DNA from: a virus
DNA length: 36,310 nt
Virus record (IMG/VR): IMGVR_UViG_3300042273_000209
Reading direction: 5' to 3' (one strand)
Shown here: one piece after another, positions 1 to 36,310 of the stretch
Position numbering within the stretch: position 1 is the stretch's first letter
How the letters are laid out: every line of letters begins with the position of its first letter
Position numbers and translations under genes: made by a program
The notes under the pieces: model-generated
What the model was told of the DNA's origin: nothing
Database searches by the model: none
The model's input: the letters and a program-made list of their open reading frames with translations, nothing else

Positions 1-90
1 CTGACGCCTTCGAAGGGACCGTCGTCGCCGGAGACGACCTGAAAGTTTCGGCGAGCGGTCGGCTGACCAACGGCATCGCGGCCGGAGAGC
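1..90. repeat. Terminal direct repeat, identical to 36221-36310 (circular permutation or assembly overlap)
   Basis: Bases 1-90 read identically to the last 90 bases of the window. Confidence 0.9.
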
Positions 91-152
91 ACGTCGTCGC
101 CCAGGCCATTTCCGTACAGAGCGGCGTCCTCAAATTCCGCCTGCTTGTCTAA
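3..152 (+). CDS. C-terminal part of a junction-spanning gene that starts at 36010; hypothetical beta-rich protein
   Basis: Open frame continues from 36010 through the repeat into 3-152 with stop TAA at 150-152. Confidence 0.4.
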   Translation, partial: DAFEGTVVAGDDLKVSASGRLTNGIAAGEHVVAQAISVQSGVLKFRLLV

Positions 153-197
153 CCCAAGTAGCCAACGCACATGGGAGCCAATCAGGGAGGCGAGCGA

Positions 198-512
198 ATG
201 AACCAGGCCCGAAAAGACGACCACGGCAAGCTTCGGTTTGACCTGATCCCGCCGGGGCCGCTGAAGGAAGTGGCCGCCATATACACCGTCGGGGCCGAGA
301 AATATGGCGACCGCAACTGGGAGCAGGGGTTGGCCTGGGGGCGCGTTTTTGCCGCCATCCAGCGCCACCTCTGGGCCTGGTGGGGCGGGGAGGAGCTAGA
401 CCCCGAGGACGGCCTGAGCCATTTGGCCCATGCGGCCTGGGGATGTTTCACGCTGATGGAGTACGCGCAGACCCACCCGGAGATGGACGAGAGGAAGGAG
501 GCGACAGAATGA
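198..512 (+). CDS. MazG-like dATP/dGTP diphosphohydrolase-domain protein (putative)
   Basis: Motif KDDHGKLRFDLIPP...GAEKYGDRNW...RHLWAW recalled from phage NTP pyrophosphohydrolase-like proteins; GGGAGG RBS before ATG 198. Confidence 0.5.
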   Translation: MNQARKDDHGKLRFDLIPPGPLKEVAAIYTVGAEKYGDRNWEQGLAWGRVFAAIQRHLWAWWGGEELDPEDGLSHLAHAAWGCFTLMEYAQTHPEMDERKEATE

Positions 513-757
513 GCATATCGCTCCGAATTCTCTCGCCGCCTGATCGACCTGGTGGTGGAGCGGGCGATGGAGATAGTGGGGGCCTCCTGATGGATTTTCC
601 GCTGACCTGCCCCAGGTGTGGATCACGCGAGATCTGCACGGCGGGGAGGGGAGAGCATCAGACGGAATATGGCCTGCACTGCTCCTCCTGTGGCCACGAG
701 GGGTGGGGGAAAACGATAAGTGAAGCGATAGATCAATGGGAGGCGGTGGAGGAATGA
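509..757 (+). CDS. Lar-family-like restriction alleviation zinc-ribbon protein (putative)
   Basis: CPRCGS...CSSCGHEG...EAIDQWEA pattern; ATGA overlap with upstream stop; alternative start at 590. Confidence 0.5.
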   Translation: MSISLRILSPPDRPGGGAGDGDSGGLLMDFPLTCPRCGSREICTAGRGEHQTEYGLHCSSCGHEGWGKTISEAIDQWEAVEE

Positions 758-1020
758 ATCACACGCCGGGACCGTGGTCTGTAGAGGCAATTTACGCATT
801 GCTGCGATTCGGCAGAAAAAGCGGTGGATCGTGGGACGACATAGGCGAAGAACATGAATTTTTCCCTGACGAAGACGACGCCAATCTCATCGCCGCCGCT
901 CCGGAGATGCTGGAGGCGCTTGAAGCAATGGTGGAGATGGTAGAGATGAACGGGTTGGGCAAACGGTATGCGCTTGACCTTGCCGCGTCCGCCATCACGA
1001 AAGCGAGGGGAGAGGAATGA
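754..1020 (+). CDS. Hypothetical small phage protein (AAAPEMLEALE motif)
   Basis: GGAGG RBS; ATG overlaps upstream stop; motif common in small phage early proteins. Confidence 0.5.
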   Translation: MNHTPGPWSVEAIYALLRFGRKSGGSWDDIGEEHEFFPDEDDANLIAAAPEMLEALEAMVEMVEMNGLGKRYALDLAASAITKARGEE

Positions 1021-1101
1021 GCCACGTGGATGTTGTCGGGCATGTCTACGCCGGGCATGAGGACGAGTTGAATCCCTATCTCGGGCAGGGGGTGGTAGTG
1101 G

Positions 1102-1266
1102 ATGACGTTTGATGAGCTGAAAGCTGTCGTCGTCGAGTGGTACGAGGCTGACGTTGGCAACGCAAAGGCAGACAAGTATTTGCGCCGGATAAACGCACAA
1201 CAGAGACTCGAACTGGCCGCCCGCTGTCTGATTGAAGAGGGCGGGAAGGCGGAGGTGACGGAATGA
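1102..1266 (+). CDS. Hypothetical small protein (54 aa)
   Basis: Hand-found ORF below the ORF-track cutoff; its stop overlaps the ATG of the next small ORF (1263-1397), which in turn overlaps 1394. Confidence 0.3.
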   Translation: MTFDELKAVVVEWYEADVGNAKADKYLRRINAQQRLELAARCLIEEGGKAEVTE

Positions 1267-1393
1267 GCCATACGCAGAAGGCGCTGAAGGCTGGCGACGG
1301 CACGGCGTATAGATGCTACGAGTTTGCGGCAGCCAAGATGGCCTCTCTGGACCTGGCGACGGCTCTGGTGAGTCTACGAAGGGGCGCGAACGA

Positions 1394-1552
1394 ATGACTC
1401 GCCAGCGCTGTCAGATCTATTCCCGCGTCGTCGGATTTCTCACCCCCATCTCGCAGTGGAACAAGGGCAAGCAGGAGGAGTTCAGGGACAGGAAGACGTT
1501 TGATAAGCAGTTGAGGGGCAAACGCATCGGAACGTCACAAACGCATCATTAG
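1394..1552 (+). CDS. Small protein resembling the C-terminal glycyl-radical loop of class III ribonucleotide reductase NrdD
   Basis: SRVVGFLTPISQWNKGKQEEFRDRKTF matches the NrdD C-terminal motif R-V-x-G-Y-L-x-P-x3-W-N-x-GK-Q-x-E; start 1394 preferred over 1313 (better RBS, ATGA coupling). Confidence 0.4.
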   Translation: MTRQRCQIYSRVVGFLTPISQWNKGKQEEFRDRKTFDKQLRGKRIGTSQTHH

Positions 1553-1562
1553 GAGGTTGCCG

Positions 1563-2072
1563 ATGAGCCGCATTGACAAGGTCGTTAGCGTCCTGGAGTT
1601 GCTGTTGAGGAGGCACAAGGAGCCCCTGCTGGTCCTGCTGGGCGAGGTGGATCCGCCGGCGCTTTATCACTGGGCCGAGATCCTTCCCGTCCGCGGAGAG
1701 GATATTGGCCGAGTCGGCCGAGTCGATGGATCGCCTGGTACTCCCGAGCAGGAACGCCTTGTCTCGTCGGTGGACGTCATTGAGAGGGCTATCGACAAGG
1801 CCGGAGGGTGGGCGGGCATTGTCGCGGCAACACGGGAGGTGCGGCAGCGGGAACCGATGGGGTGGAACCTATTCGTCGAGCACGTGCTCTGGGTGGGCGA
1901 GGGCTCGAAGCTCGATCTTGCCGGCGGCCAGCTGGACAAGATCTGCGACAGATACGGGGTTTGCCGGGCGACGGTCTGGAGATGGAGGGCGCAGATCCCC
2001 AGGTTGATCGCTCGACAGGCCTGCCATGGAGGGCAACGGGTCTTCGCCTTCTGGGTCTCCGTGCAACATTAA
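1563..2072 (+). CDS. Hypothetical protein with C-terminal HTH-like segment
   Basis: AGGAGG RBS 6 nt before ATG; C-terminal LDKICDRYGVCRATVWRWR resembles a DNA-binding HTH. Confidence 0.5.
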   Translation: MSRIDKVVSVLELLLRRHKEPLLVLLGEVDPPALYHWAEILPVRGEDIGRVGRVDGSPGTPEQERLVSSVDVIERAIDKAGGWAGIVAATREVRQREPMGWNLFVEHVLWVGEGSKLDLAGGQLDKICDRYGVCRATVWRWRAQIPRLIARQACHGGQRVFAFWVSVQH

Positions 2073-2251
2073 AGTATCATCAAAGTATAGGCTAAACGTG
2101 CTATTGAATATCGGGAATGGGCTGTATGCTTATAGTGTGGCGCAAGTTGGGGGACTGAGTATCGGGCCTCCGCCGCCGACGAGGGACAGATGCCCCTCGA
2201 AAGAGCAGCCTCGGCCACACCTGGCCGGGGCTTTATTTGTGAGGTGAGCCC

Positions 2252-2557
2252 ATGCCAAGGAAGCCAGGGGAGCAGTATGCGACCAAACGGCGCAAGGACA
2301 GAGAGCGACGGTACAACGCCTCCCGTCCTGCACGGCATGGATTCTATGCTTCTCCAGAGTGGAGACGAGTGAGGGATTGGTACCGAACCAGACATCCGCT
2401 CTGTGAGGAGTGCCAGAGACAGGGACGCGTGGCGGCTGCTGAGTTGGTCCACCATAAAGTGGAGATATCAGAGGGTGGCGAGCCGCTGGACGTGGAGAAT
2501 CTAGAAAGCCTTTGCAGGAGCTGTCATAGCAAGGTGCATGGGTTCAAGCAAGGGTAG
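2252..2557 (+). CDS. HNH endonuclease
   Basis: CEECQRQGR...AELVHHKVEI...LESLCRSCHSKVH signature; typical partner of terminase. Confidence 0.8.
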   Translation: MPRKPGEQYATKRRKDRERRYNASRPARHGFYASPEWRRVRDWYRTRHPLCEECQRQGRVAAAELVHHKVEISEGGEPLDVENLESLCRSCHSKVHGFKQG

Positions 2558-2642
2558 GGGGGGGAGTTAGAGTCTACAGCCCTACTTTATTTTTTACGCC
2601 GGGGAGTCGCACGCGAGATTTCGCAAGTTAGGACATGGGGGG

Positions 2643-3134
2643 GTGGCTAAGATCAAAGTGACAAAAAAGCGCGTTGAGGAATTGACTCCATACTCCAGAA
2701 ATTCAAGGACGCACAGCGACGCGCAGGTCGCGCAGATAGCAGCATCTATACGCGAGTTTGGTTTTATAAATCCCGTCTTGGTTGACGCGGAAAACAACAT
2801 CATCGCCGGCCATGGGCGCGTGCTGGCAGCCCGAAAACTCGGTCTTGAGGAAGTGCCGTGTGTACTCCACGATCATCTGACGGAGACGCAGCGCAAGGCG
2901 TATATCCTTGCAGACAACAAACTTGCGCTCAATGCAGGATGGGATGAAGACATGCTCCGCTTGGAATTGCGCGAGCTTGGTGACATGGGTTTTGATTTGG
3001 AGTTGACGGGGTTTGATGAGGTAGAAGTTGAGGCATTAAACCATAAGGTGAATATAGATGATTTTTTTTCAGACAGAGAAGGAGAAGTGCCAAAGGAACC
3101 TAAGTTATGCCCTCATTGTGGTGGTGTTTTATGA
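2643..3134 (+). CDS. ParB-like nuclease-domain protein (possible DpdB-like partner of DpdA)
   Basis: ParB N-terminal motif INPVLVD...IIAGHGRVLAARKLGLEEVPCV; GTG start; stop overlaps start of next gene. Confidence 0.6.
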   Translation: MAKIKVTKKRVEELTPYSRNSRTHSDAQVAQIAASIREFGFINPVLVDAENNIIAGHGRVLAARKLGLEEVPCVLHDHLTETQRKAYILADNKLALNAGWDEDMLRLELRELGDMGFDLELTGFDEVEVEALNHKVNIDDFFSDREGEVPKEPKLCPHCGGVL

Positions 3135-3865
3135 GGATTCACCTTGCGGGGATAGTTAGAGCTAGTTGTTGCATTGAAGAAGCAAGGAAGGCTCTTTTTG
3201 TTCTCGAATCGTTCCAGACTATAAATAGGTGGGTTGTAGAATCAATCCCGTATTGGAAGTCTTTTATCCTTGACAGTGGCGCTTTTACATATATGTCAAA
3301 CACTTCAAAAGGTGGAAGTGTAAATTGGGAAGACTATGTGAGCAGATATGCTGATTTTATCAAAAACCACAAAATCAAACATTACATAGAGCTTGACATT
3401 GATTCAATCGTCGGACTTAAGGAGGTTGAGAGATTACGCAATATCCTTGAAAACAAGGTAGGGTATCCATCAATACCAGTATGGCATAAAAGCAGGGGGA
3501 AAGATGAGTTTATACGCATGTGCCGTGATTACAAATATGTAGCGATTGGTGGAATCGTAACGAAGGAGTTCACACGAAAGGATCATAAATACTTCCCATG
3601 GTTCATAGACAAAGCGCATGAAATGGGAGCGGAGATACACGGGCTGGGATACACTTCAAGCAACTTGAGGAAATACCAATTCGATTCCGTTGATTCCACA
3701 AGCTGGCTTAGTGGCGGAAAATATGGCAGTTTATGCGTCTTGAAAAACAAAAAAATTAAATATGTTACCGTGAAGGGGAAAAAAATTTCACGGGATCAGG
3801 ATGCAAATGTTCATAACTTAAGAACTTGGATTATGTACCAAAAACTATTATACGATGGGAAATAA
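3131..3865 (+). CDS. dpdA: DpdA-like tRNA-guanine-transglycosylase-family protein (putative 7-deazaguanine DNA transglycosylase)
   Basis: ILDSGAFTYM resembles the TGT catalytic DSGGFQ motif; AT-rich cassette next to YhhQ-like gene. Confidence 0.5.
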   Translation: MRIHLAGIVRASCCIEEARKALFVLESFQTINRWVVESIPYWKSFILDSGAFTYMSNTSKGGSVNWEDYVSRYADFIKNHKIKHYIELDIDSIVGLKEVERLRNILENKVGYPSIPVWHKSRGKDEFIRMCRDYKYVAIGGIVTKEFTRKDHKYFPWFIDKAHEMGAEIHGLGYTSSNLRKYQFDSVDSTSWLSGGKYGSLCVLKNKKIKYVTVKGKKISRDQDANVHNLRTWIMYQKLLYDGK

Positions 3866-3877
3866 TCAGGAGGGTTT

Positions 3878-4486
3878 ATGGAAAAAAACAATAGAAACCT
3901 AATCACGATCAATGCTGTTTTTGTAGTCAGTCTTATCATGGCTAATGTCGTGGCGTCGAAAATCGTTGACGTTTTTGGATTTGTAGTTCCCGCTGCCGTT
4001 GTTGCTTACGGGATCACCTTCCTTTGCACGGATGTTATTGGTGAGATTTGGGGGAAGGAAGAAGCAAACAAGACCGTCAAATTGGGGTTTGTTATGCAAA
4101 TCCTATCTCTATGCCTTATCATTTTGGCGATAATGCTTCCGCCGGCGGTTTTTGCTGTTGAAGAGGGAAAGTCTTTTAATTCAATACTGGGGCAATCTGG
4201 AAGGGTGGTAGTTGCTAGTCTTATCGCCTACTTGGTAGCTCAATTCAATGATGTTTATGTTTTCCACAAACTGAAAGGCGCTTGCAACGGAAGAGCAAAG
4301 TGGATTCGGAACAATGGAAGCACTATTTTAAGCCAGTTTTTCGACACTGCAATTTTCATTACTGTGGCGTTTTACGGAGTAGTCCCTGACCTTGGATGGA
4401 TGGTTATCAGTCAGTATGTTGTAAAGGTCGTGATAGCGCTCTGTGATACACCTTTATTCTACTTCTTTACACGTAAAAGTGTATGA
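3878..4486 (+). CDS. yhhQ: Queuosine precursor transporter, YhhQ/DUF165 family
   Basis: Multi-TM protein; VVASLIAYLVAQFNDVYVFHKLK and CTDVIGEIWG resemble E. coli YhhQ; AT-rich. Confidence 0.7.
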   Translation: MEKNNRNLITINAVFVVSLIMANVVASKIVDVFGFVVPAAVVAYGITFLCTDVIGEIWGKEEANKTVKLGFVMQILSLCLIILAIMLPPAVFAVEEGKSFNSILGQSGRVVVASLIAYLVAQFNDVYVFHKLKGACNGRAKWIRNNGSTILSQFFDTAIFITVAFYGVVPDLGWMVISQYVVKVVIALCDTPLFYFFTRKSV

Positions 4487-4522
4487 AAAAATACTGGCGC
4501 AATGGGGTAGGAGGCGATTTTT

Positions 4523-5008
4523 GTGGCAGGGCCGCCAAGAAAACCAACGAAGCTAAGGATCCTGGAAGGGAACCCATCAAAGCGTCCCCTTCCAAAAAAT
4601 GAACCGGAGCCAGACCCTACAATGCCACAGTGTCCTGATTGGCTCATGGACGACGCTAAAGATGAGTGGAAGCGCGTTGCTCCGGAGTTGAACCGCATTG
4701 GATTACTGACAATAATTGACCAGACCGCGTTAGCAGGATACTGCCAGTCTTATGCAAGGTGGAAAAAGGCCGAGGAAGAAATCAAACTGCTCAAAAATAC
4801 AATATACCCATTAAAAGACGAAGCGGGAAACATTAAGGGCTTCCAGCAGTATCCACAGTACGGGATAGCAAATCAATGTCTAAAACAAATACGGGCGTTT
4901 TGCTCTGAGTTTGGGTTGACCCCGGCAGCGCGTGCGAAGATGGAATTGCCAACTGAGAGGAACCGTGACGACGACTTCGCCTCCAAACTTCGCTCGAAGA
5001 TAGGCTGA
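4523..5008 (+). CDS. Terminase small subunit, P27 family
   Basis: GTG start after AGGAGG; N-terminal GPPRKPTKLRILEGNPSKRP typical of P27-family small terminase. Confidence 0.8.
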   Translation: MAGPPRKPTKLRILEGNPSKRPLPKNEPEPDPTMPQCPDWLMDDAKDEWKRVAPELNRIGLLTIIDQTALAGYCQSYARWKKAEEEIKLLKNTIYPLKDEAGNIKGFQQYPQYGIANQCLKQIRAFCSEFGLTPAARAKMELPTERNRDDDFASKLRSKIG

Positions 5009-5012
5009 TCCC

Positions 5013-6557
5013 ATGTTTTCACGCAAAAAAGCAGACTGGGCGATTGAATTTATTGCCAGGCTAAAACACACAAAAGGCGAATGGGCCGGCAAGCCCTTCC
5101 TGCTTCAAAAATGGCAGAAGATGTTTTTGAAGGAACTCTTCGGGCGCGTCAAAGATGACGGACTCCGGCAATATCAGACCGCATATCTGGAGATCCCGCG
5201 CAAAAACGGGAAGTCTGAACTTGCCGCCGCCATCGCTCTTTTTCTCCTCTTCGGAGACGGGGAGCCGGGAGCGGAAATATACAGCGCCGCGTCGGACAGG
5301 GAGCAGGCATCCCTCGTATTCAACGCGGCTGCGTATATGGTCCGCAATGACCCGGTGCTCTCCGGCATGTGCAAAATCATCGACTCTCAGAAGCGGATCG
5401 TGTTCTACGAGACGGCGAGTTTTTACCGGGCCATCAGCGCGGAGGCATACTCGAAGCACGGATTCAACGCGCACGCCGTCATTTACGACGAAATTCACAG
5501 CGCACCGAACCGTGACCTCTGGGACGTGCTTTCCACGTCCATGGGAGCGAGGACACAACCGCTCATGCTCGGGATTACGACGGCAGGCTACGACCGGAAC
5601 TCCATCTGCTGGGAACTTCACGACTACGGGCAAAAAATCATTGACGGCGTGGTTGAAGATCCAACATTTTTCCCGCTCATATTCGCCGCCGACGAGGGAG
5701 ACGAATGGACGGACGAAAAAACGTGGAGGAAGGCGAACCCGAACCTAGGGGTATCAATCAAGCTCGACTTCCTGCGTCGGGAGTGCAAACGCGCCCAGGA
5801 GATCCCCGCCTACCAGAACACGTTCCGGCGGCTGTACCTCAACCAGTGGACGACTCAGGAAACGCGTTGGCTCGATATGTCGAAATGGCGCGAGTGCGGA
5901 GAGGACTTCGACCTCTCGAAGCTCGCAGACCTCCAATGCTGGGCTGGCGTGGACTTGAGCACCACGACCGACATATCCTCTTGCGCCTTGGTATTCGAGC
6001 CGGACGAGGAAGACAGGGTCCACGTCCTCTCGTTTAATTGGGTACCCGGCGACAACATCGCGGCAAGGGTTCGCCGTGACCGCGTGCCATACGACGCATG
6101 GGCGCGAGACGGGCATATCGTGGCGACGGACGGCAACGTCATAGACCATGACTACATCAGAAATTCTATCGCCATCGACCTTAAAGCTATGTTCCCGCGC
6201 TTGGAGGTCGTTGGATACGACCCATGGAACGCCACAAAATGGGCCATCGACCTCGAAGGCGACGGCGTGCCGGTGGTGCAGATCCGGCAGGGGTACAAGA
6301 CCATGAGCCCCGCATGCAAGGAATTAGAACGGCTTGTGCTCGGGGGTTATTTGCGCCACAACAATAACCCTGTTTTGACCTGGGCAATGGACAACGTTAT
6401 GGTCACGCAAGACCCGGCGGGGAATATTAAACCCGCAAAGGACAAGGCGACTGAGAGGATAGACCCGGCAGTTGCTCTAATAACCGCCATCGCCACCATG
6501 CTGGAGTTCCGCGACGAGCCGTCAATCTATGAATCGAGGGGAATACTAACTCTCTGA
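5013..6557 (+). CDS. Terminase large subunit
   Basis: 514 aa; conserved terminase_1 blocks (EIPRKNGKSELAAA, VIYDEIH, nuclease C-terminus). Confidence 0.9.
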   Translation: MFSRKKADWAIEFIARLKHTKGEWAGKPFLLQKWQKMFLKELFGRVKDDGLRQYQTAYLEIPRKNGKSELAAAIALFLLFGDGEPGAEIYSAASDREQASLVFNAAAYMVRNDPVLSGMCKIIDSQKRIVFYETASFYRAISAEAYSKHGFNAHAVIYDEIHSAPNRDLWDVLSTSMGARTQPLMLGITTAGYDRNSICWELHDYGQKIIDGVVEDPTFFPLIFAADEGDEWTDEKTWRKANPNLGVSIKLDFLRRECKRAQEIPAYQNTFRRLYLNQWTTQETRWLDMSKWRECGEDFDLSKLADLQCWAGVDLSTTTDISSCALVFEPDEEDRVHVLSFNWVPGDNIAARVRRDRVPYDAWARDGHIVATDGNVIDHDYIRNSIAIDLKAMFPRLEVVGYDPWNATKWAIDLEGDGVPVVQIRQGYKTMSPACKELERLVLGGYLRHNNNPVLTWAMDNVMVTQDPAGNIKPAKDKATERIDPAVALITAIATMLEFRDEPSIYESRGILTL

Positions 6558-6574
6558 CACTTAACCCACAAGTT

Positions 6575-6608
6575 AAGCCGCTTTCCTTCGGGGGGCGGCT
6601 TTTTTATT
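6575..6608 (+). terminator. Rho-independent terminator after large terminase
   Basis: GC stem aagccgc...gcggctt followed by a T-run. Confidence 0.6.
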
Positions 6609-7914
6609 GCCAAAAAAGGAGGTGAAAACCCTGAAAAAGAGCGTTTTCGCGCAAATAAAAGACATTTTTCGGCGGGGATTGTACCCCGGAGGACACCCGT
6701 CGGAAGCCGAGATCGTTCGCATACTCACGGGGGCAAGCCTGACGGGACACACCGTGGACGAAGAAAAAGCCATGAGGTTCTCGGCGGTTTACTCCTGCGT
6801 GCGCGTTCTCTCGGAGTCAGTGGCGCAGTTGCCGCTCAAAATCTACCGGCGCAAGGGGGACGGGAGGCAGGAGGCTGCCGACCATTATCTTTATCCACTC
6901 CTGCACGGTGCCCCGAACCCTCGGCAGACGGCGTTCTCGTTCTGGGAGGCCGTCACCGCGAGCCTCGCTCTCTGGGGCAACGCCTACGCCCTCATCGACC
7001 TTGACAACGCCGGCAGGGTGGCAGCGCTCTGGTTCCTCGATCCGTCCACGGTCACACCCAGGAAAGTTCTGACCACTGGCGAGCTTGTTTATGACGTGGC
7101 GATGAAGGACGGCACCAGCCGGACGTTCCTGTGGGGAGAACTGTTCCACATCCCGGGGCTGGGCTTCGACGGCCTTCGGGGTCATTCCGTGGTGAGGGTG
7201 GCGGCGGAGGCTATCGGGCAGGGGATAGCGGCCAGCGAGTACGCTGGGAGATTTTTCGACAATGACGCGACACCGAGGGGTGTACTGGAAACGGACGCTT
7301 TTTTCAAAGACCCGTCTGTCGTCGAACGCCTCAGGAGGTCATGGAACGATCTCTACCAGGGGACAAACAACGCCCACCGGGTGGCCATCCTTGAAAACGG
7401 TCTGAAATTCAAACCGCTGACCATCAACCCCGAGGACGCGCAACTGCTCGAAACGCGCAAGTTCAACAGGTCTGAAATCGCCGGGATCTTCCGTGTGCCC
7501 CTGCACATGATCGGCGACCTGGACAAGGCGACGTTCAGCAACATCGAACACCAGAGTATCGACTTCGTGAAATTCAGTCTCTCGCCATGGCTCAAAAGGA
7601 TTGAACAGGCTATATCCCTGCAACTCTTCTCTCCGGGGGAGCGTAAGCGGTATTTTGCCGAGTTCAAGCCGGAAGGGATGCTCAAAGGGGACGTCAAGAG
7701 CAGGTATGAGGCATACGAGGTGGCTATCCGCAGCGGTTGGATGAGCATCAACGAGGTCCGTGGACTGGAGAATTTGAACCCCGTAGACGGTGGAGACGAG
7801 CACTATCTCCAGATGCAGATGATACCCATCTCGCAGGCGGGAAAGGAGGCAGAGGATGGACAGGGAAATTCGAGCGATCCCGGCGGAGTTCCGGGTGAAG
7901 GAATCGGAGAATGA
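6607..7914 (+). CDS. Portal protein, HK97 family
   Basis: FSAVYSCVRVLSESVAQLPLKIYRR and downstream portal blocks; start uncertain (TTG 6607, CTG 6631 after AAGGAGGTG RBS, or ATG 6772). Confidence 0.8.
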   Translation: MPKKEVKTLKKSVFAQIKDIFRRGLYPGGHPSEAEIVRILTGASLTGHTVDEEKAMRFSAVYSCVRVLSESVAQLPLKIYRRKGDGRQEAADHYLYPLLHGAPNPRQTAFSFWEAVTASLALWGNAYALIDLDNAGRVAALWFLDPSTVTPRKVLTTGELVYDVAMKDGTSRTFLWGELFHIPGLGFDGLRGHSVVRVAAEAIGQGIAASEYAGRFFDNDATPRGVLETDAFFKDPSVVERLRRSWNDLYQGTNNAHRVAILENGLKFKPLTINPEDAQLLETRKFNRSEIAGIFRVPLHMIGDLDKATFSNIEHQSIDFVKFSLSPWLKRIEQAISLQLFSPGERKRYFAEFKPEGMLKGDVKSRYEAYEVAIRSGWMSINEVRGLENLNPVDGGDEHYLQMQMIPISQAGKEAEDGQGNSSDPGGVPGEGIGE

Positions 7915-8434
7915 GCCGCTGAAGATCATCGGCTACGCGGCGCGGTTCAACGAGCTCTCGGAAGAAATGTGGGGCATGCGGGAAAAAATCGCCCCAGGCG
8001 CATTCACGGAAGCCATCGGAAAAAGCGACGTGAGAGCCTTGTGGAACCATGACCCGAACTACGTTTTAGGACGCACCAAAAACGGCACCCTGCAGATCCG
8101 CGAGGACGAGCAGGGTCTTTTTTATGAGGTCACGCCTCCGGATGCGCAGTGGGCGCGGGACCTGGTGGAGAGCATAAAGCGGGGGGACGTGGACCAGTCC
8201 AGCTTCGCCTTCACGGTGGACGTGGAGCAATGGGACGAATCGGGAAGCCCAGTGGTCCGCACCATCGTAAAAGTGCGCGAGTTGTTTGACGTTTCGCCGG
8301 TCACCTATCCGGCCTATCCCACGGCCACCAGCGGCGTGCGGTCCCTGCAGGACGTGGCGAAGGAGCACAAGGCGGCACCGGCACCAAAAGCCCCGGAACA
8401 TCTCCGGGACAAACTTAAATTTCTGGAGGTATGA
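7856..8434 (+). CDS. Prohead protease, HK97 family
   Basis: LKIIGYAARFNELSEEM...IAPGAF; overlaps portal 3' end. Confidence 0.85.
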   Translation: MDREIRAIPAEFRVKESENEPLKIIGYAARFNELSEEMWGMREKIAPGAFTEAIGKSDVRALWNHDPNYVLGRTKNGTLQIREDEQGLFYEVTPPDAQWARDLVESIKRGDVDQSSFAFTVDVEQWDESGSPVVRTIVKVRELFDVSPVTYPAYPTATSGVRSLQDVAKEHKAAPAPKAPEHLRDKLKFLEV

Positions 8435-8435
8435 A

Positions 8436-9623
8436 ATGAATATCAGGGAAATGATGGAACAGCGCGCAACCCTTGTTGCAGAGGCCCGGAAGCTGCTTGA
8501 CGTTGCCGAGGGCGAGAAGCGGGAACTGAACGCTGAAGAGCGGACGCAGTACGACAAGATTTTTGAAGAGGCTCGCACCCTGGGTGACAAGATTCAGCGC
8601 GAGCAGGAGCTTCGCGAAGAGGAAAGGCGGCTCGCCGAGGCCGGCCGGCTGGAACCCGAGGGGAAAAAGGAAAATCCCGAAGAGCGCAAGCTTAAAGCGT
8701 TCCGCAATTTCCTTGTCACGGGCAACGCCGCGGAATATCGCGCACTGGCTAACGACACCGACGAGACGGGTGGATTCCTTCACGCTGCGGAGCAGTTTAT
8801 CACTCGGCTCATCAAGGGACTGGATGACAGGGTATTTGTCCGGCAGTACGCCACCGTCCTGCCCGTGACCAGCTCCGATACTCTCGGTGTTCCCGTCCTG
8901 ACCGCAGACCCGGGAGACCCCACGTGGACAACGGAAATCGCCGCTCCCTCCGAGGACAGCACCATGGCCTTCGGACGGCGCAGCCTGCAGCCCGAACAGC
9001 TCTCCAAGCTGATCAAAATTTCCATGAAGCTCCTTCGGACCTCGGCCCTGCCCATCGAGAATCTCGTGGCGGACAGGCTCGCGTACAAGTTCGCCGTGGC
9101 GCAGGAAAACGCGTTCCTCAACGGCGACGGCGACGGGCAGCCTCTCGGCATTTTCACCGCAAGCGACGACGGAATCCCGACTACTCGCGACGTGAGCACC
9201 GGCAACAGCGATACGGCGTTGACAGCGGACGGGTTGATCAACGCGAAATTCGCGCTCAAGGCTCAGTATCGCGGCTCCTGCCGTTGGATCTTCCATCGAG
9301 ACGCGGTGAAGATGATCTCCACGCTCAAGGACGGGGAAGGTCAGTACCTTTGGAGACCGGGGATGCTCATGAACGAGCCGGACATGCTTCTTGGGCATCC
9401 CGTTGACGAGAGCGAGTATGTGCCCAACACCTTTACCACCGGCCTGTACGTCGGCGCGCTCTGCAACTGGAGTAACTACTGGATTGCCGAGCTCCAGGGC
9501 GTGGAGCTCCAGAGGCTCGTAGAACTCTACGCGGGAACCTCGCAGATCGGATTCATCGGCCGGATGTATGCCGACGGCGCTCCCGTCCTTGCGGAATCCT
9601 TTGTCCGCGTCAAGCTCGGATAG
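8436..9623 (+). CDS. Major capsid protein, HK97 fold, with N-terminal coiled-coil delta domain
   Basis: GGAGGT RBS; ATG next to protease stop; 395 aa. Confidence 0.9.
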   Translation: MNIREMMEQRATLVAEARKLLDVAEGEKRELNAEERTQYDKIFEEARTLGDKIQREQELREEERRLAEAGRLEPEGKKENPEERKLKAFRNFLVTGNAAEYRALANDTDETGGFLHAAEQFITRLIKGLDDRVFVRQYATVLPVTSSDTLGVPVLTADPGDPTWTTEIAAPSEDSTMAFGRRSLQPEQLSKLIKISMKLLRTSALPIENLVADRLAYKFAVAQENAFLNGDGDGQPLGIFTASDDGIPTTRDVSTGNSDTALTADGLINAKFALKAQYRGSCRWIFHRDAVKMISTLKDGEGQYLWRPGMLMNEPDMLLGHPVDESEYVPNTFTTGLYVGALCNWSNYWIAELQGVELQRLVELYAGTSQIGFIGRMYADGAPVLAESFVRVKLG

Positions 9624-36009: not shown

Positions 36010-36310
36010 ATGTCATTCATCAATCCGTGTCACCGCAGACTCGCCTATGGCGACGGTCACATCCAGGGCGACGGCCAGCTCGGCCAGGTGGTCCGCGTGG
36101 TCGGCGACGACCTGTTCGCCGTCAACACCGATCCCACCAAGCGCTCCTTCGGCATCCTGATCAAGGACTACAAGAACGGAGAGATGCCCGGCATCTACTG
36201 CGACGGCGGCGTTTACGAGACTGACGCCTTCGAAGGGACCGTCGTCGCCGGAGACGACCTGAAAGTTTCGGCGAGCGGTCGGCTGACCAACGGCATCGCG
36301 GCCGGAGAGC
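36010..36310 (+). CDS. N-terminal part of junction-spanning gene (continues at 3-152); hypothetical beta-rich protein
   Basis: AAGGAGGG RBS 6 nt before ATG; frame stays open into the terminal repeat. Confidence 0.4.
   Translation, partial: MSFINPCHRRLAYGDGHIQGDGQLGQVVRVVGDDLFAVNTDPTKRSFGILIKDYKNGEMPGIYCDGGVYETDAFEGTVVAGDDLKVSASGRLTNGIAAGE
36221..36310. repeat. Terminal direct repeat, copy of 1-90
   Basis: Identical to bases 1-90. Confidence 0.9.

Follow-up and report, generated by a model that had tools for sequence, protein, structure and literature searches.

A candidate DpdA-type DNA modification module with a precursor transporter and no synthesis genes in the variable terminase-proximal slot of a phage genome

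Does the short AT-rich gene group between the HNH endonuclease gene and the terminase genes of this phage encode a DNA modification module, and where would its precursor come from? The window analysed here is the whole stretch of 36,310 nucleotides of IMG/VR record IMGVR_UViG_3300042273_000209, a circular genome. The initial annotation read the group as a ParB-like protein, a DpdA-like transglycosylase and a YhhQ-type transporter. All three open reading frames are present as described, and the stop codon of the ParB-like gene overlaps the start of the next one in an ATGA, TTTTATGAGG (Table 1). The dpdA start was set at 3131 from homologue alignments and public gene calls; the list of open reading frames also gives 3107. 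Our analysis established gene identities, family relationships, conserved synteny, the missing synthesis genes and a chimeric junction. We consider it probable that the group is a 7-deazaguanine (DpdA-type) DNA hypermodification module in a variable ‘ParB-terminase’ slot at the left genome end.

Table 1. Features of the locus and its flanks, in positions of the window.
Feature	Position	Strand	Evidence and remarks
HNH endonuclease	2252..2557	+	Pfam HNH 7e-12; phrog_144 5e-24; last gene before the probable genome end
Probable left physical end (cos side), then G-run ribosome-binding site	2606..2642	+	Contig starts
Small ParB_N protein, 163 aa	2643..3134	+	Pfam ParB_N 2e-8
Putative DpdA-type DNA-guanine transglycosylase, 244 aa, minimal TIM barrel	3131..3865	+	Homology to phage DpdA
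Putative YhhQ/COG1738 queuosine-precursor transporter, 202 aa	3878..4486	+	Vut_1, TIGR00697; own AGGAGG ribosome-binding site
Low-GC replaced segment (parB tail, dpdA and yhhQ)	about 3014..4500	+	GC and sibling comparison
TerS, small terminase, P27 family	4523..5008	+	Pfam Terminase_4 1e-25; resident gene
TerL, large terminase	5013..6557	+	TerL_ATPase and TerL_nuclease; resident gene

The DSGAF catalytic-like motif that had been noted in the TGT-like protein occurs as LDSGAF (residues 47-52), without variation across the enzyme family. Residues D48, D91, H119 and D188 are invariant in the family and also in the DpdAs of CAjan and of actinophages, Vibrio phages and Salmonella phages, and are predicted to be catalytic or base-binding. 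By motif, not residue by residue, we propose that they correspond to Asp95, Asp130, His181 and Asp256 of bacterial DpdA (PMC10164549). A predicted (beta/alpha)8 TGT-type barrel, together with the catalytic Asp/Asp and base-reading Asp/His residues, points to membership of the TGT/DpdA superfamily. Searches with tblastn matched CAjan, 9g-like, Pseudomonas ‘DpdA’ and mycobacteriophage ‘DpdA-like’ genes, and all named matches belonged to phages of the 9g/CAjan, Rosebush or 7-11 type. The DpdA of CAjan (306 residues, against 244 here) was found with an E-value of 1e-4 and 24% identity over 76% of the query, and profile comparison (hhalign) with CAjan gp35 gave 99.2% probability (E 2.9e-19); LDSGAF, IGG, HxxG and DSxSW are common to both enzymes. 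Enzymes of the 9g/CAjan type have been named DpdA1 (PMC10516641), and deletion of the CAjan gp35 gene abolished dPreQ0 (PMC6884629, PMC7544227).

The initial reading hinged on the enzyme grouping with DpdA rather than with tRNA-modifying TGT. Identity as a tRNA Tgt was rejected, since hhalign against E. coli Tgt gave only 0.8% probability, Pfam TGT (PF01702) did not match the enzyme even at E<=10, the CxCxxC zinc site is absent (there are four Cys only, C13, C14, C131 and C203) and the protein stops at residue 244 without the C-terminal RNA-binding extension. No conserved Cys cluster occurs in the family alignment either. These comparisons support a phage DpdA-type enzyme rather than a tRNA TGT. 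The PADLOC DpdA model did not match at E<=1, and it recognised CAjan DpdA itself only weakly (1.3e-3); Pfam and NCBIfam gave no match, nor did PDB sequences when searched with the single sequence and two profiles. The links to DpdA thus come only from PHROGs, tblastn, profile-profile and structural comparisons. A large enzyme family, with more than 3,000 clusters at 90% identity, escapes the Pfam, NCBIfam and PADLOC models. Long open reading frames in five related loci (L011, L014, L018, L039 and L075) were considered as ParB-DpdA fusions and discarded, since they contain no ParB_N domain; they are over-extended frames overlapping a separate parB, or N-terminal repeat extensions.

The third gene product scored above the curated cut-offs of both Pfam Vut_1 (4e-52; 176.9 bits against 27.2) and the TIGR00697 equivalog (171.5 bits against 50.95), which bears out its annotation as a YhhQ-type transporter. 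It stayed below the cut-off of the E. coli YhhQ equivalog NF008406 (62.4 bits against 252). By these family models it is a predicted YhhQ-family queuosine-precursor (preQ0/preQ1-type) transporter; the substrate can differ among members of the family. In CAjan, deletion of yhhQ left the modification unaffected (PMC7544227). As the initial annotation had supposed, the transporter stands in place of synthesis genes: none of FolE, QueD, QueE and QueC is encoded anywhere in the circular genome, which implies precursor salvage or supply by the host.

To see how common this layout is, we compared 80 related loci, representing 33 clusters of DpdA sequences at 70% identity. A ParB-like gene lies directly upstream of dpdA in 70 of the 71 loci with enough flank, usually overlapping it or within a few bases. 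Pathway genes were counted in the 72 related IMG/VR loci whose downstream flank is 3 kb or longer. All 72 contain YhhQ and/or Que/FolE genes, so that DpdA is linked to 7-deazaguanine synthesis or salvage throughout, and in the window it is YhhQ that adjoins dpdA. FolE/QueD/QueE/QueC genes occurred in 30, YhhQ only in 19, both in 14, and YhhQ with a QueC-like gene in five. A salvage-only architecture is therefore common, and its recurrence in 19 of the 72 loci argues for selection on salvage.

The identity of the ParB-like protein departs from the initial annotation, which had suggested a DpdB partner. The protein reaches 34.6 bits against Pfam ParB_N (cut-off 26.3), matches phrog_620 (4e-59) and phrog_498 (ParB-methyltransferase, 3e-56), and is matched by the N-terminal region of PADLOC MTase_II (1.4e-43). 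It combines a GHGRVLA (GxxRxxA) motif with an acidic linker and, at the C-terminus, a CPHC knuckle. GHGRVLA is invariant in the close homologues and present in at least 90% of the DpdA-linked ParBs, and the GxxR arginine is missing from some of them (L002, Rosebush and Hilltopfarm). An AF2 model (pLDDT 78) had its best Foldseek matches in Noc, ParB-CTP, PadC and KorB, including CTP- or CDP-bound ParB. The top 50 matches were ParB, Noc, PadC, KorB, Srx and related ParB/Srx-fold entries, with no DndB or SspE among them. No DndB- or DpdB-named family was matched in Pfam, NCBIfam and PADLOC, libraries that may hold no such model, and the DGQQR motif is absent, with AGHGRVLAA instead. The architecture of a full partition protein was not found either, as the protein has only 163 residues, no ParA gene adjoins, and scores are far under the NCBIfam cut-offs (parB_part 33 against 58; Noc 36 against 315). 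We assign it, by motif and predicted fold, as one of the small ParB_N proteins that belong to phage ‘ParB-terminase’ modification loci and not as a DpdB homologue.

How the module came to lie in this slot can be read from composition and from sibling phages. The initial annotation had delimited an AT-rich stretch at about 3130-4490. Its low GC content holds, since GC is 0.406 at 3131-4486 against 0.594 in the rest of the genome; over all 1356-nt windows of the genome the mean is 0.585 (SD 0.053) and the minimum, 0.404, starts at 3001, which places the cassette at the genome's GC extreme, about 3.4 SD under the mean. Its borders had to be moved. The fall in GC already starts within parB, with GC3 of 0.605 at 2643-2900 and 0.397 at 2901-3134, and TerS lies between these two values (0.50). 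Nucleotide homology to siblings L094, L096 and L138 ends exactly at 3013 and is back at 4476-4521, therefore the foreign segment is about 3014-4500. A compositionally foreign cassette thus occupies the slot between HNH endonuclease and terminase, as first proposed, and siblings with 93-97% identical TerL are without it; their slots contain a ParB-methylase (N6/N4) fusion, ParB with a C5 methylase, or nothing. A transposon-like insertion was dismissed because no direct or inverted repeats were found at the cassette flanks. A scan for promoters and terminators gave counts not above the shuffled expectation and nothing between the genes.

The junction makes parB chimeric. Its product shares 93.5% identity, over residues 1-123, with the N-terminal end of the ParB-methylase fusion of sibling L094, and the last 40 residues (124-163) match DpdA-linked ParBs only, so that parB is only partly in the insert: nt 2643-3013 belong to the resident genome and nt 3014-3134 came with the cassette. 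A recombination event where the ParB_N domain ends would have replaced a methyltransferase-type effector by dpdA and yhhQ. The sibling comparison may thus have caught a switch of modification type, from methylase to DpdA, at single-junction resolution, and the swap supports the small ParB_N protein as a constant partner of exchangeable DNA-modifying effectors.

The locus also appears to mark a genome end. Five independent contigs that match the window identically or nearly so (L003 and L087-L090) all begin exactly at 2606, and contigs of the related phages L097, L098, L105 and L106 open with the same GTC.CGCGCGAGAT-type sequence, after which comes TerS or ParB. Position 2606 is probably the left cos end of the mature genome, as inferred from these starts, and the module genes are the first genes past it. 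The genome is probably that of a cos-type, HK97-like siphovirus. Megablast of positions 1-9000 of the window against 50,697 phage records gave no match, and there is therefore no close cultured relative among them; a tentative hint to the host comes from metagenome bins placed in Synergistales or Synergistaceae.

Characterised systems share parts of this arrangement. Like the window, CAjan has a homologous transglycosylase and a yhhQ gene in its cluster; dPreQ0 makes up 32% of its G, and modification of this type is post-replicative and protects against restriction (PMC6884629). Unlike the window, CAjan encodes the full FolE/QueD/QueE/QueC set, has no adjacent ParB and carries the cluster in its replication region. 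Rosebush and Hilltopfarm (Mycobacterium) and Sonali (Arthrobacter) have, as here, a ParB-like gene followed by dpdA, which in the first two sits just upstream of the terminase. The 4-nt overlap of the two genes recurs in Rosebush and Sonali, and Hilltopfarm has a small open reading frame between them. In Rosebush 28% of G is dPreQ0 (PMC6884629); its gene 1 resembles the ParB profile weakly (hhalign E 4e-4, 35% probability) without a Pfam ParB_N match, and ORF1 of the related phage CRB2 was earlier suggested as a dpdB-like ParB (PMC6392294). The three phages differ from the window in having preQ0 synthesis genes and no YhhQ, in DpdAs with 28-33% identity over partial length, and in ParBs with neither the GxxR arginine nor the CPxC tail.

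Among annotated relatives, those closest to the enzyme are found in Fusobacterium phage phiFN37 (OR492271; 38% identity) and human-gut phage contig MT835752 (46.5%). PhiFN37 has the same salvage layout in the order ParB-TGT-hypothetical-YhhQ, with an extra open reading frame before YhhQ, and its ParB ends in CPHCGGIL compared with CPHCGGVL here; its module lies away from the terminase, unlike that of the window. In MT835752 the order is ParB-DpdA-QueC-QueD-QueE-FolE-TerS-TerL, with synthesis genes where the window has YhhQ. Bacterial Dpd (DpdA/DpdB/DpdC of Salmonella Montevideo) differs in that its PADLOC DpdA model leaves the window enzyme unmatched, its partner is the DndB-like DGQQR ATPase DpdB instead of a 163-residue ParB_N/GxxRxxA protein, and the window has neither DpdC nor restriction genes. 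We read the locus as counter-defence by the phage and not as a restriction-modification system of a host.

Phages with DpdA only (group 3 of Hutinet 2019, with Salmonella 7-11 and Mycobacterium Orion; Pantoea MED16) share with the window the lack of preQ0 synthesis genes and rely on host or exogenous precursor. In those tested, Orion was unmodified and 7-11 and MED16 had 0.02% and 0.13% of G modified. They lack an adjacent ParB and YhhQ, whereas the window adds a dedicated importer; some phages do encode YhhQ (Hutinet 2019). Finally, a passage in PMC4738411 that cites Iyer, Zhang and Aravind refers to ‘ParB-terminase large subunit’ DNA-modification loci, whose predicted DNA modification is linked there to packaging. 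These share with the window a ParB-domain gene and a DNA-modifying enzyme directly ahead of the terminase, but their effector is a methylase or Mom and not a base-exchange enzyme with a transporter. ParBc-linked methylases and CmoX have been described (PMC12783734), and what the ParB domain does in such loci is still stated as unknown in the literature. The order ParB-Mom-terminase was found in other phages, where close homologues of the window ParB precede Mom.

From these comparisons we infer the substrate, the role of ParB, the occurrence and level of modification, and protection. The module genes would be expressed together with the late packaging operon. YhhQ in the host membrane would import a free 7-deazaguanine base, most likely preQ0 or preQ1, and host-made preQ0 could be an alternative or added source. 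DpdA, in which D188 would be the nucleophile and D48 the acid/base, would then swap guanine for 7-deazaguanine in double-stranded phage DNA after replication. The ParB_N protein, translationally coupled to DpdA, would bind DNA, probably in a nucleotide-dependent manner like ParB, Noc and KorB, and would target DpdA to DNA or make it processive, a role analogous but not homologous to that of DpdB with bacterial DpdA. Most likely, guanines in the phage DNA would be partly replaced by scavenged 7-deazaguanine, and the modified DNA would withstand host restriction.

Counting against such a module are the absent or trace modification in the tested DpdA-only phages, the unaffected modification after loss of yhhQ in CAjan and the GxxR arginine missing from some DpdA-linked ParBs; moreover, validated DpdAs such as that of CAjan work without a neighbouring ParB. 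In another reading, DpdA and YhhQ form the modification module and DpdA acts alone, as in CAjan, with ParB not a cofactor and either having a packaging-proximal role of its own, for instance marking DNA for the terminase, or being left over from a ParB-methylase. The DpdAs of CAjan, BCD7, SE131 and Vibrio D272 lack an adjacent ParB, the first 123 ParB residues were inherited from the ParB-methylase lineage, and the same kind of small ParB_N precedes Mom and C5 and N6/N4 DNA methylases in other phages and is therefore not DpdA-specific. Still, we find this unlikely given the ParB gene upstream of dpdA, mostly overlapping or a few bases away, in all but one of 71 loci, a cassette that carried its own ParB tail resembling those of other DpdA-linked ParBs, and the strict need of bacterial DpdA for a ParB-superfamily ATPase (PMC10164549). 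A further explanation is that the cassette is a recent passenger that gives no or trace modification in this host and is near-neutral since precursor is limiting. The cassette GC, not adjusted to that of the genome (0.41 against 0.59), indicates recent acquisition, most close siblings lack the cassette, and modification in the tested DpdA-only phages is none or trace. Set against this are intact open reading frames with all family-invariant residues kept, identical copies in five other contigs from at least four samples plus one 95% identical variant, and the YhhQ-only layout in other loci, which make a mere passenger quite improbable.

Very improbable is an auxiliary metabolic module that acts on RNA or the queuosine pool, in which import of Q precursor and tRNA modification would tune translation and leave the DNA unmodified. 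The profile of the enzyme fits DNA-acting DpdA and not tRNA Tgt, its 244 residues include neither zinc site nor RNA-binding extension, it is coupled to a DNA-binding ParB, the same slot in siblings holds DNA methylases, and no tRNA genes were found in the circular genome. The DpdA-type DNA modification module remains our preferred reading.

More broadly, the small ParB_N protein with its CPxC knuckle might be a universal nucleotide-dependent DNA-loading adaptor, into which DpdA, Mom and N6/N4 and C5 methylases plug via a short exchangeable tail, coupling modification to packaging at the genome end. We regard this as doubtful. If true, recombination at the domain boundary (nt 3013) would allow a one-step switch of modification chemistry, here to a purely salvage-fed 7-deazaguanine genome whose high modification level would depend on environmental preQ0/preQ1. 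The locus is a further instance of an anti-restriction strategy that is already known rather than a new strategy, and a clear complete-genome case of a salvage-only module, with DpdA and YhhQ and no synthesis genes. In practice, the DNA of such phages may withstand restriction enzymes, and its nanopore signal may be altered at modified G positions.

Positions 1-90 recur exactly at 36221-36310, and this 90-nt terminal overlap shows that the assembly is circularly closed and spans one complete genome, ~36.2 kb in length. It belongs to an HK97-like siphovirus that encodes RecE/RecT, SSB, an O-like replication initiator, RusA and an endolysin; the genome contains no tRNA genes and the ORFs scanned included no integrase. 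Between HNH endonuclease and TerS the ORFs agree with the initial annotation, and the ATGA overlap between the parB stop and the next gene was read directly in the sequence. The AT-rich stretch described there was also recovered: GC is 0.406 at 3131-4486 versus 0.594 in the remaining window. Over all 1356-nt windows (mean 0.585, SD 0.053) the minimum of 0.404 starts at 3001, so the genome reaches its compositional extreme here. TerL relatives (L126, L127 and L129) come from metagenome bins labelled Synergistales (93% identity, L126), Synergistaceae (52% identity) and Spirochaetota (97% identity, 1.5-kb contig), a weak hint at a Synergistota host. A nucleotide-pool enzyme, MazZ-like, lies ~2 kb upstream of the predicted guanine-modification module. 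A second ParB_N protein sits on the opposite strand among unannotated genes and may be a plasmid-prophage or regulatory ParB.

Table. Features of the window and gene contents of related phage loci
Feature	Location	Strand	Remarks
HNH endonuclease	2252-2557	+	ORF listing
ParB-like protein, 163 aa	2643-3134	+	ORF listing
TGT-like protein (DpdA-type), 244 aa	3131-3865	+	Start backed by homologue alignments and public gene calls
YhhQ protein, 202 aa	3878-4486	+	ORF listing
Small terminase TerS	4523-5008	+	ORF listing
Large terminase TerL	5013-6557	+	ORF listing
MazZ-like protein, 113 aa	171-512	+	Pfam PF18909 (dATP/dGTP diphosphohydrolase N-terminal), E 2e-36
Second ParB_N-domain protein, 180 aa	28652-29194	-	Pfam 2.9e-6; weak PHROG 'ParB-like partition' matches
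HNH-TerS slot, siblings L094 and L096			ParB_N::N6/N4 DNA methylase fusion
HNH-TerS slot, sibling L138			ParB and C5 DNA methylase
HNH-TerS slot, sibling L092	553-1641		Cys-rich HNH protein, 362 aa, many CxxC repeats, C-terminal HNH-like motif
HNH-TerS slot, siblings L093, L099 and L126			Nothing; L126 from Synergistales metagenome bin
ParB_N and Mom-family (PF25680) pairs	L134 3001-4204; L135 2198-3354; L136 83-1239		Just upstream of terminase or portal
DpdA homologues with N-terminal repeats	L039 5422-6705; L011 539-1876; L075 5800-6765		Also proteins P0020, P0033, P0102
Human-gut phage contig MT835752			ParB, DpdA, QueC, QueD, QueE, FolE, TerS, TerL
Fusobacterium phage phiFN37			ParB, TGT, hypothetical, YhhQ
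Arthrobacter phage Sonali			ParB, DpdA, QueC, QueD, QueE, FolE
Mycobacteriophage Hilltopfarm			ParB-like, small ORF, DpdA-like, then preQ0 genes and terminase
Mycobacteriophage Rosebush			Gene 1, DpdA (4-nt overlap), then preQ0 genes and terminase

The 244-aa enzyme matched nothing in Pfam, NCBIfam or PADLOC and no PDB sequence, profile searches included. It was assigned to phrog_887 (E 8e-49), and its family comprises 3,379 clusters at E<=1e-3, almost wholly unnamed; none of the 120 listed clusters carried a Pfam domain, and identity to the window enzyme was typically ~50% among the matches listed. With tblastn, the enzyme reaches CAjan gp35, 9g-like phages, Pseudomonas Queuovirinae 'DpdA' and mycobacteriophage 'DpdA-like' genes, all either annotated as phage DpdA or shown to be. 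Deletion of dpdA in CAjan abolishes dPreQ0 and restriction resistance (PMC6884629; PMC7544227). Profile comparison gave the family a probability of 99.2% with CAjan gp35 (E 2.9e-19) versus 0.8% with E. coli Tgt. The residues D48 (LDSGAF), D91, H119 and D188 (DSTSW) are invariant across the window family and the DpdAs of actinophages, CAjan, Vibrio and Salmonella phages. From motif positions we propose that they are the counterparts of four residues described for bacterial DpdA (PMC10164549), namely an Asp acting as acid/base, an Asp and a His that read the base, and a nucleophilic Asp. Family, tblastn links, profile comparison and invariant residues together identify the protein as a DpdA-type enzyme. 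The initial annotation had named grouping with tRNA-modifying TGT as the alternative; given the very low match to Tgt and the absence of both the zinc-site cysteines and the C-terminal extension, the protein groups with DpdA instead. In many DpdA homologues the N-terminus is extended by the first strand segment (M-x-[IVL]-[FYH]-L-[AS]-G...), present in two to five tandem copies that each begin with Met; duplications, alternative starts or wrongly called ORFs may lie behind these extensions.

The transporter assignment held as well, as the protein scores above the curated thresholds of both Pfam Vut_1 and TIGR00697 (equivalog 'queuosine precursor transporter'), while falling below that of the E. 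coli YhhQ-specific model. HMMs built from related loci detected no FolE, QueD, QueE or QueC in the whole circular genome. The phage must therefore obtain its 7-deazaguanine base from the host or from an external source, and the phage-encoded importer argues for the latter. In CAjan, deletion of yhhQ left modification unaffected (PMC7544227). Conservation was assessed in 80 IMG/VR loci with relatives of the enzyme, whose DpdA sequences form 52 clusters at 95% identity and 33 at 70%. Of the 71 loci with 600 nt or more of flank, 70 have a ParB-like gene directly upstream of dpdA. Downstream sequence of 3 kb or more was available for 72 loci, of which 30 had the full preQ0 synthesis set, 19 only YhhQ as in the window, 14 YhhQ with the full set, five YhhQ with a QueC-like gene, three a QueC-like gene only and one three synthesis genes. 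Named phages show the same arrangements (Table). In Rosebush dPreQ0 replaces 28% of G (PMC6884629), and its gene 1 is weakly ParB-like (hhalign E 4e-4).

The initial annotation had likened the ParB-like protein to DpdB, and a ParB-like ORF adjoining DpdA in phage CRB2 was already suggested as a DpdB equivalent (PMC6392294). For the window protein this identity is excluded: no DndB- or DpdB-named family appeared in the Pfam, NCBIfam or PADLOC results, and DGQQR is absent. It consists of a ParB_N domain with GxxRxxA (GHGRVLA), a helical segment, an acidic low-confidence linker and a C-terminal CPHC knuckle (CPHCGGVL versus CPHCGGIL in phiFN37). In structure searches its predicted model matches the CTP-binding Noc, ParB, PadC and KorB. 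The best library matches are the N-terminal parts of ParB-methyltransferase fusions, with phrog_498 at 3e-56 and PADLOC MTase_II at 1.4e-43 (model positions 9-152 of 436). Small homologues with 58-61% full-length identity, CPxC tail included, lie directly upstream of Mom and terminase in other phages, the arrangement termed the 'ParB-terminase large subunit locus' by Iyer, Zhang and Aravind. They predicted a packaging-linked modification of phage DNA by this locus (as cited in PMC4738411); the role of the ParB domain in such loci was still called unknown in a 2025 paper (PMC12783734). The window protein is a ParB-terminase-locus protein, a putative adaptor, rather than DpdB. In L134, L135 and L136 the ParB_N gene overlaps the Mom-family gene start, and the same adaptor, CPxC knuckle included, is there paired with a chemically unrelated DNA modification.

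The contents of the HNH-TerS slot differ among phages with TerL 93-97% identical to that of the window (Table). Nucleotide homology to the three methylase-bearing siblings covers the 5' 370 nt of parB, breaks off at 3013 in each of them and picks up again at 4476-4521. The L094 fusion protein shares 93.5% identity with ParB residues 1-123, residues 124-163 match DpdA-linked ParBs only, and GC3 drops there as well, from 0.605 to 0.397. The swap junction lies inside parB, which belongs to the low-GC cassette only in part. The homology break, chimeric ParB and GC3 drop show that the event was a replacement, in which recombination at the boundary of the ParB_N domain put a ParB tail, dpdA and yhhQ in place of a methylase-type effector. 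The donor is of low GC and outside the sampled phages, as the best DpdA relatives are only ~50% identical; no transposon-like repeats were found at the cassette. The 5' two-thirds of terS are also mosaic: when 4523-4970 was compared with L092, L093, L099 and L126, homology to some siblings did not start before 4890-4970, and at 4700-4900 GC falls to 0.41-0.43. It seems that TerS has had its DNA-recognition part exchanged as well.

Five independent contigs (L003, L087-L090) begin exactly at 2606 with one mismatch in total to the window, and related-phage contigs (L097, L098, L105, L106) open with the same GTC.CGCGCGAGAT-type sequence; after it come a G-run and the first gene, either TerS or ParB. 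Judging from these contig starts, 2606 is probably where the mature genome has its left cohesive end. The slot would then lie between cos and terS, with the genes of the module the first to follow cos, as in Rosebush and Hilltopfarm.

We consider it fairly probable that the module works as a whole in the following way. YhhQ would import preQ0, preQ1 or a related base, which DpdA would exchange for guanine in replicated phage DNA by TGT double-displacement chemistry. The translationally coupled ParB_N protein would target DpdA to DNA or render it processive, and the modified DNA would resist restriction. What the sequence data show are the identities of the genes, their synteny, the lack of synthesis genes and the recombination junction; what we infer is the substrate, the ParB role, and whether and how strongly the DNA is modified. 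However, DpdA-only phages tested to date were unmodified or modified at trace level (PMC6884629), validated DpdAs occur without any ParB partner, and the GxxR arginine is missing from some DpdA-linked ParBs.

The DpdA-type system and the suggestion of a DpdB equivalent in CRB2 were known already, as was the presence of YhhQ in some DpdA phages and of DpdA alone in others (Hutinet et al., 2019). The functional call made initially was right in its main points, and needed correction on the nature of the ParB-like protein and on the position of the swap junction. The significance of the locus lies in its salvage-only architecture, with DpdA and YhhQ but without synthesis genes, in a poorly annotated enzyme family, and in the clean view it gives of an effector swap from methylase to DpdA.
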